A stretch of DNA of 64,000 nt from Octopus vulgaris (taxonomy: Eukaryota): NCBI GenBank assembly GCA_951406725.2, contig OX597826.1:55242001-55306000 (forward strand). The letters run 5' to 3'. Positions 33,754-35,359 of this stretch are shown here, in pieces; position 1 is the stretch's first letter; every line of letters begins with the position of its first letter. The notes beneath the pieces are model-generated. The model saw nothing but the letters and a program-made list of their open reading frames with translations, did no database searches and was not told where the DNA came from. The position numbers and the translations under genes are program-made.

Positions 33754-34125
33754 GAACACAGGAAGAAACAAGGAGAGAAAATAAAGAAAAGGAAATAAAT
33801 AAGCCTGTATATATATGTGTGTGTGTGCATATATATGCACACACACACACACACACACACCCACACACACACACACATATACATATATATATATATATAT
33901 ATATATATATATATATATATATATATATATATATATACTAAGCAATTAAGGGTTTAGCAACGAATTGCCTTACAACACACCGAATTTAGAAATAGCAGTC
34001 AAAGAGATTATAGCTATTTCTTCTACTAAAAGGGAGATCACAGTAAAGACACAGCACTTGAAAGGCAAACACAAACAGGTAAGAAAGAATGAATTAACGG
34101 CAATCTATCATACAGTTTTAAGTCA

Positions 34126-34217
34126 CCTACGGACGTACGTTTCGAGATCAAGTCTTAGGAAAGCATAAGAATTAGATAACTCTACCTTACCCAAACTTCT
34201 TCTTTCATCAGCGCAGG
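34126..34217 (-). ncRNA. Type I hammerhead ribozyme (inverted copy)
   Basis: Reverse complement of 34864-34955. Confidence 0.75.
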
Positions 34218-34863
34218 ATACAAACAATCATGAATGATTGAATATTGAATTTTGAGATACTAGAAGGCACCAACTCAACTCAGTATCAGAGCGAGCTAGA
34301 AGCCATAGCTAGTATCACCAAATTCCTTATGCTTTCCTAAGACTTGATCTCGAAACGTACGTCCGTAGGTGACTTAAAACTGTATGATAGATTGCCGTTA
34401 ATTCATTCTTTCTTACCTGTTTGTGTTTGCCTTTCAAGTGCTGTGTCTTTACTGTGATCTCCCTTTTAGTAGAAGAAATAGCTATAATCTCTTTGACTGC
34501 TATTTCTAAATTCGGTGTGTGGTAAGGCAATTCGTTGCTAAACCCTTAATTGCTTAGTATTACTTAAATTTTCCTCGAATGAGGCTTTTACATGCCGAAG
34601 ACTACTTGGTGTAATTGATAATTATTCCAAATTAATTAATTTCACCCTTCATTGTTACTCATAACCATATTCATCCCAGTAAATGACCACAGCACTTTGT
34701 CTTGGCTACACGCGGGTGGGAGGGGACTGGTGACACAAGCTTTCATTCATACTTTGAATTTGGTGATACTAGCTGTGGTTTCTAGCTCGCTCTGATACTG
34801 AGTTGAGTTGGTGCCTTCTAGTATCTCAAAATTCAATATTCAATCATTCATGATTGTTTGTAT

Positions 34864-34955
34864 CCTGCGCTGATGAAAGAAGAAGTCTGGGTAAGGTAGA
34901 GTTATCTAATTCTTATGCTTTCCTAAGACTTGATCTCGAAACGTACGTCCGTAGG
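34864..34955 (+). ncRNA. Type I hammerhead ribozyme
   Basis: CCTGCG CTGATGA [61-nt imperfect stem II, incl. AAGTCT/AGACTT] GAAA CGTACG TC CGTAGG; palindromic stem III ACGTACGT; predicted GUC cut after 34949. Confidence 0.78.
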
Positions 34956-35359
34956 TGACTTAAAACTGTATGATAGATTGCCGTTAATTCATTCTTTCTT
35001 ACCTGTTTGTGTTTGCCTTTCAAGTGCTGTGTCTTTACTGTGATCTCCCTTTTAGTAGAAGAAATAGCTATAATCTCTTTGACTGCTATTTCTAAATTCG
35101 GTGTGTTGTAAGGCAATTCGTTGCTAAACCCTTAATTGCTTAGTATTACTTAAATTTTCCTCGAATGAGGCTTTTACATGCCGAAGACTACTTGGTGTAA
35201 TTGATAATTATTCCAAATTAATTAATTTCACCCTTCATTGTTACTTATATATATATATATATATATATATATATATATATATATATATATATATATATAT
35301 ATATATATATATATATATATATATATATATATATATATATATATATATATATATATATA

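Follow-up and report, generated by a model that had tools for sequence, protein, structure and literature searches.

An ORF-less, hammerhead-bearing retrozyme family recently inserted in the Octopus vulgaris genome and probably mobilised by PLEs

The mobilising enzyme of animal retrozymes, and whether or not a circular RNA is its template, are questions for which, in the available portions of the literature, PLEs have so far been proposed from co-occurrence or homology. A non-coding cassette at positions 33935–35245 of a 64,000-nucleotide stretch of Octopus vulgaris DNA (contig OX597826.1, positions 55,242,001 to 55,306,000; hereafter the window) brings these questions to a single locus, where an earlier note, made from the letters alone, had proposed either a retrozyme-like monomer or the stacked 3′ tails of a recently active PLE. 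The analysis points with good confidence to the recent insertion of an ORF-less, ~586-nt, hammerhead-bearing non-LTR retrozyme family, likely mobilised in trans by the RT and GIY-YIG endonuclease of a PLE.

Architecture of the locus

The element sits between two (TA)n tracts and consists of an inverted arm, followed by a truncated direct unit and a full 586-nt unit. Its parts are listed below, with the basis of each assignment in parentheses.

33877–33937, no strand: left (TA)n target microsatellite, (TA)30 (sequence)
33935–34325, minus: inverted arm, corresponding to unit positions 97–487, with its 3′ end at the "short" fixed end (487) (self-comparison)
34126–34217, minus: complete predicted type I hammerhead within the inverted arm; CUGAUGA 34211–34205, GAAAC 34143–34139, predicted cut after 34132 (motif scan and fold)
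34321–34326, no strand: inversion junction, with AATTC near-homology and one extra C (sequence)
34326–34659, plus: 5′-truncated direct unit, corresponding to unit positions 253–586, with the 3′ half of the hammerhead only; GAAAC 34352, GUC 34363 (motif scan)
34660–35245, plus: full 586-nt unit; head-to-tail junction at 34659/34660 (sequence and genome pattern counts)
34864–34955, plus: complete predicted type I hammerhead; helix I 34864–69/34950–55, CUGAUGA 34870–76, extended helix II 34877–34937, GAAAC 34938–42, palindrome ACGUACGU 34941–48, predicted cut after C34949 (motif scan, fold and covariation)
35128–35146, plus: short fixed 3′ end (unit 487) with motif ACCCTT.ATTG.TTA, the putative first reverse-transcription start (arm-end mapping and motif comparison)
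35147–35245, plus: 99-nt "tail", in the direct arm only, ending in a conserved hairpin and a second copy of the end motif (35230–35245), the putative second start (arm-end mapping, fold and motif comparison)
35246–35359, no strand: right target microsatellite, (TA)57 (sequence)

Most of the earlier description of this layout held. The proposed 586-bp period is present, with 34326–34659 repeated at 34912–35245 and a sole mismatch between the two (34521 G vs 35107 T), and the 391-bp inverted copy is the reverse complement of 34756–35146 with three mismatches, so that the estimate of about four differing positions was correct. The (TA)n flanks and the GUC sites at 34363 and 34949 are also where they had been placed, and the upstream direct copy does lack its CUGAUGA half, because the sole CUGAnGA on the plus strand is that at 34870. 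An AATTC at the inversion join had been read as microhomology; the AATTC is there, but the join is not clean and reads AATTC-C-TTATG, with one extra C. Across the three unit copies at the locus, 448T is present in two. The unit has a GC content of 37.5% and, as had been supposed, encodes no recognisable protein, its longest stop-free frame (72 aa) being read across the head-to-tail junction and PLE proteins giving no tblastn match in the window.

A second, shorter fold-back element lies beside the cassette at 35868–36043, with a degenerate short hammerhead-like motif in each arm, and is probably an older PLE end pair. Two copies of a dispersed short repeat, 76% identical to one another, adjoin TA tracts at 35326–35457 and 36041–36172; we take this repeat to be a common SINE, probably.

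A predicted type I hammerhead with an extended helix II

A search with Rfam detected no hammerhead in this sequence, and the motif was therefore established by pattern, folding and covariation, which revealed a type I core (CUGANGA, GAAA and UH) with three helices. The hammerhead had been described as minimal, a description that does not fit: helix I has 6 bp, helix II is stretched to ~60 nt, and helix III, of 2 bp, is capped by a palindromic loop. Motif scanning and folding also revealed the second complete hammerhead, on the minus strand of the inverted arm, which is absent from the earlier note. Two consecutive complete hammerheads, the mark of an "active" element in a recent preprint (Li, Clavereau, Pollet, bioRxiv 10.64898/2026.07.22.740005), are found at other loci of the family, whereas this locus has just one complete hammerhead on the plus strand, with its CUGAUGA at 34870. 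The closing pair of helix II in this plus-strand hammerhead is an A.C mismatch, which is found at the base of helix II in 39 of the 46 copies of the youngest subfamily, to which the window copy belongs.

Covariation was assessed in an alignment of 24 variants chosen from 60 distinct ones. Across 22 pairs, 98.5% of the cells were paired and 20 double changes were observed, compared with 22–45% paired in slid controls and with 0 of 500 shuffles scoring as high; these values are to be read in the knowledge that the sequences are related, that the structure was derived from the same sequences and that selection of the left motif halves used a pattern requiring helix I. The data support, rather than prove, a hammerhead whose helices covary and whose predicted fold has been kept via compensatory changes.

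Hammerhead position 7 varies (U, A or G) and the remaining core letters are nearly fixed. A U4C core change, reported to lower hammerhead activity in vitro (PMC3088659), occurs in 35 of 171 motifs and belongs to another subfamily. A sibling ORF-less tandem family with a compensated hammerhead was also encountered (L214:4940-5719 and L288–L307), with a period of ~575 nt and 78% alike in its 3′ part. Both strands of helix I are changed in this family and the loop palindrome has gone from GUAC to GCGC with pairing kept, and the compensated palindromic loop is in keeping with the dimer fold that PMC4209133 describes in metazoan hammerheads.

Folded as a circular monomer, the unit is predicted to be highly self-paired in a strand-specific manner, at −167 kcal/mol compared with −125 ± 6 kcal/mol for 40 shuffles (z = −7.3) and −116 for the minus strand. 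The whole-unit consensus fold preferred other pairings of helix I, and the hammerhead is thus not the sole predicted fold.

A dispersed family with two fixed 3′ ends

Exact genome-wide counts gave 1,102 occurrences of an 18-mer from the hammerhead, 2,225 of a 3′ 26-mer and 49 of the 33-nt junction, and since the reversed-pattern controls all gave 0, chance is excluded. A search of the 2.8-Gb genome returned 2,034 candidates, and the 40 that were scored contained full-length units 93–100% identical to that of the window. The loci are spread over many contigs, most with fewer than two units and with partial units at the 5′ side of each arm, and a direct array of ~5 units without an ORF was found on contig 12. 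The papers listed in literature searches on octopus Penelope/hammerhead, octopus retrozymes and cephalopod hammerhead ribozymes include, to judge by their listings, no description of the family, Repbase and Dfam lying outside their scope. Assembled contigs of four runs, whose RNA nature was guessed, cover the unit and bridge the junction, as multi-copy DNA would likewise do.

Insertion ends were mapped in a sample of 84 loci on contig 1, made up of all 61 with the 18-mer and 23 with the 26-mer only (first 139 Mb), with flanks of ~3.5 kb (1.5 kb for four loci). Full units are 572–592 nt long, with identity down to ~79%. The head-to-tail junction was found in 37/84 loci and inverted arms, on both strands, in 37/84; the end of one unit joins the start of the next across subfamilies down to ~79% identity, and does so in the sibling family as well. 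Tandem type I hammerheads are a property of the family, 17 of 125 arms spanning at least two cut sites.

The two ends of the arms behave differently. The 5′ ends are scattered, whereas 116 of the 125 3′ ends fall at two fixed sites ~99 nt apart, with 70 at unit positions 483–499 (51 of them at 487) and 46 at 575–586. TA repeats lie no more than 22 nt from 111/125 arm ends, and a short end is paired with a long one in 28 of the 37 inverted loci. The fixed ends at 487 and 586 have in common an 18-of-23 motif, which ranks first among the non-self matches of the unit, and each end stands behind a predicted hairpin.

A peak of 5′ ends at the cut site was considered and rejected. Although 16 of 27 TA-flanked ends fall within 291–299, ends in a control window were drawn to the anchor in like manner (11/17; Fisher p = 0.76), and the 85 local 5′ ends are spread evenly; single loci that start at 291–292 are L203, L185 and L004. 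A cluster at 274–279 proved to be an artefact of locus selection, the pattern used having its first position at 279, and consists of ordinary truncations rather than of a different upstream family.

The longest arms of the sample, up to 3,693 nt, were seen in the U4C subfamily (L122, L127, L164, L144, L123 and L154). In an old copy at L160, helix II is interrupted by a 1.3-kb insert with inverted ends (L160:2098-3442), which by eye we take to be mariner-like.

Relation to autonomous PLEs

The 84 sampled loci were inspected for PLE coding sequence. None continues upstream into an ORF, and 83 lack any abutting PLE ORF, so that none shows the RT plus GIY-YIG ORF inside the element that would mark an autonomous EN+ PLE. 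With the 33-nt head-to-tail junction recurring 49 times genome-wide, the retrozyme option came through the check that had been proposed for it, and the option of stacked PLE tails was not supported, though the insertions have a PLE-like geometry. The one option does not rule out the other, retrozymes having been proposed as non-autonomous derivatives of PLEs (bioRxiv 10.64898/2026.07.22.740005, in its available text). By the sequence-level definition used there and in the accessible part of PMC7229834, the family classifies as an ORF-less non-LTR retrozyme and not as an autonomous PLE; in the way it inserts it behaves like a non-autonomous PLE.

At the one locus with an abutting ORF, L131 (contig 1, ~155.33 Mb; L131:3325-3649 and 1962-3323), four letters link the 487 end to a 5′-truncated RT–GIY-YIG fragment. 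This fragment lies downstream of the retrozyme copy and comes from a family unrelated to the unit, and both parts are young, at 99.7% and ~100% identity to other copies. The join may have arisen by a template jump, which would possibly name the mobilising PLE family, or by insertion into a common TA tract. At three other loci, PLE fragments lie 0.3–2 kb away and do not abut; in the sibling family, PLE matches were found at 2/20 loci, at the edge of the fetched DNA.

The genome contains intact RT–GIY-YIG ORFs of 781 and 784 aa in many near-identical copies, with a cysteine-rich linker from which these young families are read as Neptune-like, following the description available in PMC8557442. 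Insertions of the intact PLE families share the layout seen for the 586-nt unit, namely TA targets, inverted arms and a tail. A parent PLE homologous to the unit was sought by a GIY-YIG family search, in which 150 of 6,136 candidates were scored, and by a protein search, in which 93 of 30,041 were scored; several RT–GIY-YIG families were found, none of them homologous. The 87 PLE loci compared, which represent a minor share of all PLE sequence in the genome, showed no homology between the unit and an autonomous PLE, the pseudo-LTR included. The few unit matches at PLE loci (L075, L038, L057 and L221, with L057 outside the inspected set) are nearby sibling insertions or the single L131 join. 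With no autonomous element bearing the unit sequence in these 87 loci, the PLE partner is a putative one.

Proposed mechanism and RNA template

The partial tandem, inverted 5′-truncated arm, one-sided tail and microsatellite target together make up the layout of a PLE-mobilised insertion. In the proposed mechanism, a PLE protein would cut both strands of a TA tract, and reverse transcription would be initiated at two homologous internal positions of the RNA (487 and 586 of the unit), one for each target strand. Each cDNA would pass the hammerhead and the unit junction and then halt at a random place, and the two stumps, joined back to back, would give the inverted arm and the partial tandem. 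The two fixed ends appear to fit the two-start model of the lizard PLE, the protein of which, once purified, cleaves AT-rich DNA on both strands and reverse-transcribes in vitro from two internal RNA sites, thereby defining the genomic tail (PMC11167929, as far as its accessible text goes). The template would most likely be a circular monomer produced by the predicted dimer-type hammerhead cleavage, a choice that is favoured without being firm, and an uncut linear multimer would be the less probable alternative.

The cut site is read through by 73/125 arms, 17 of which pass at least two, and the template is therefore a circle or an uncut multimer and not a linear monomer. Divergence has a median of 0.54% within a locus vs 1.02% to the nearest other locus, the within-locus value being the lower one for 31 of 42 loci. 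Eighteen private variants (private meaning not seen in other sampled loci, ~50 having been sampled) are common to all copies of their locus, including three across five units on contig 12. In several arrays a variant is common to part of the units only, as with 448T at the window locus, and such variants are unexplained by a single circular template without conversion. At U4C loci the arms are longer (Mann-Whitney p = 0.036, age not controlled), and at least two cut sites are spanned in 8/16 of these loci vs 7/32 others (Fisher p = 0.096); longer U4C arms are predicted by both circular and linear-multimer templates.

The same ORF-less, PLE-mobilised family could instead be copied from uncut linear multimeric transcripts of its arrays, with a weak or incidental hammerhead and no need for a circle. 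Such a template would account for the lack of a specific 5′-end pile-up at the cut site, for the variants confined to part of an array and for the longer arms of U4C loci (p = 0.036), and the core changes carried by amplifying subfamilies count against a circle or active-ribozyme step; moreover, uncut RNA is the main template of the lizard PLE and cleavage is dispensable in vitro (PMC11167929, in the text available). However, private variants in all 4–5 units of an array and the lower divergence within loci need a single-unit template at some step, and the hammerhead fold and palindromic loop have been conserved via compensatory change. This reading is rather less likely than that of a circular template.

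Two further explanations both appear very improbable. The units could be the stacked 3′ ends (pseudo-LTRs) of an as yet unseen autonomous PLE, present as 5′-truncated copies, since the partial tandem, inverted arm, tail and TA target form a PLE layout (PMC8557442, in its accessible portion) and few PLE families were sampled out of the 6,136 and 30,041 first-look candidates; yet this is largely refuted by the joining of unit end to unit start in 37/84 loci, across subfamilies to ~79% identity and in the sibling family, by direct arrays of ~5 units and by the absence of any sampled locus continuing upstream into an ORF. A satellite that starts from single PLE-derived seeds and expands locally through unequal crossing-over, a route discussed in the available text of bioRxiv 10.64898/2026.07.22.740005 and as unlikely here as the last, would make units more alike within a locus than between loci, as observed, but the loci lie on many contigs, mostly have fewer than two units and end at two fixed sites flush with TA tracts, with partial units at the 5′ side of the arms as truncated reverse transcription would leave them.

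For the retrozyme reading with a circular template, a more speculative synthesis can be offered tentatively. The family and its sibling might belong to an old clan of ~580-nt, gene-free circular RNAs that has diverged to ~78% even where it is best kept and still has its dimer-type hammerhead. Owing to two homologous start signals, a PLE enzyme might be able to prime on each target strand and go on copying around the circle, the carriers perhaps being Neptune-type PLEs without common sequence (the one L131 join), and weakened variants (U4C and the A.C pair of helix II) might be favoured as their template survives, giving longer arrays.

Discussion

The family most resembles the metazoan non-LTR retrozymes of coral, mussel and axolotl (Cervera and de la Pena 2020, PMC7229834), whose tandem units are non-coding, with a single type I hammerhead per unit, a GC content below 45%, a highly self-paired predicted fold and PLEs coexisting in the same genomes. 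The unit differs from these in its length (586 nt, compared with ~170–400 nt) and in its helix II, which at ~60 nt is extended. The inverted arms and microsatellite targets of the 586-nt family are unmentioned in the accessible text of that study, where PLEs are named only as strong candidates for retrozyme mobilisation and circular RNA is shown, whereas that of the octopus family is putative. Its length does fall within the 51–972 bp of the retrozymes in the preprint (bioRxiv 10.64898/2026.07.22.740005), which it also resembles in having few units per array and co-occurring PLEs. The preprint argues for a PLE link from co-occurrence and from pLTR homology in Xenopus, whereas the link here was read from the insertion ends and no homologous pLTR was found in the PLE loci sampled. 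Mollusc terms and "tail" are absent from the available preprint text.

The likeness to EN-bearing PLEs (Neptune, Poseidon and Naiad) and to non-autonomous Chlamys such as MRC1 (PMC8557442, PMC11167929 and PMC4209133, in the portions available) lies in the mode of insertion, with partial tandems, an inverted 5′-truncated copy, a one-sided tail between two fixed ends, AT-rich or (TA)n targets and a hammerhead with a palindromic helix III. Chlamydomonas is known to have non-autonomous forms in which several copies stand head to tail (same sources). Unlike EN-bearing PLEs, the 586-nt unit has no RT–endonuclease ORF, its tail is 99 nt compared with the 30–40 nt described for PLEs (PMC8557442) and the cut site is followed by the fixed ends at distances of ~197 and ~296 nt. 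In these portions, canonical hammerheads are described as absent from Naiad and Chlamys, whereas the unit has a predicted hammerhead.

The retrozyme class is already known, and the 586-nt family is a further animal retrozyme with a clear and testable PLE footprint, namely two fixed starts, back-to-back arms and TA targets on an ORF-less unit. Because the same genome holds intact, near-identical PLE ORFs, the components of an in vitro assay, a PLE protein and a defined RNA of 586 nt, can be stated precisely, and the natural ribozyme variants of the family allow the need for cleavage to be tested.

Other hammerhead-like sequences in the genome

Close to the 3′ end of young autonomous PLE families (L061, L249 and L079) lies an atypical hammerhead-like core (UUGAUAAG), and one of the three has a long extra ORF upstream of its RT ORF. 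Many unrelated hammerhead-like motifs, in which helix II is long and the palindromic loops are short, were met incidentally in the flanks of L018, L021, L034, L038, L068 and L069 and of L071, L127, L130, L133, L149 and L151, so that the genome appears to hold many such families.
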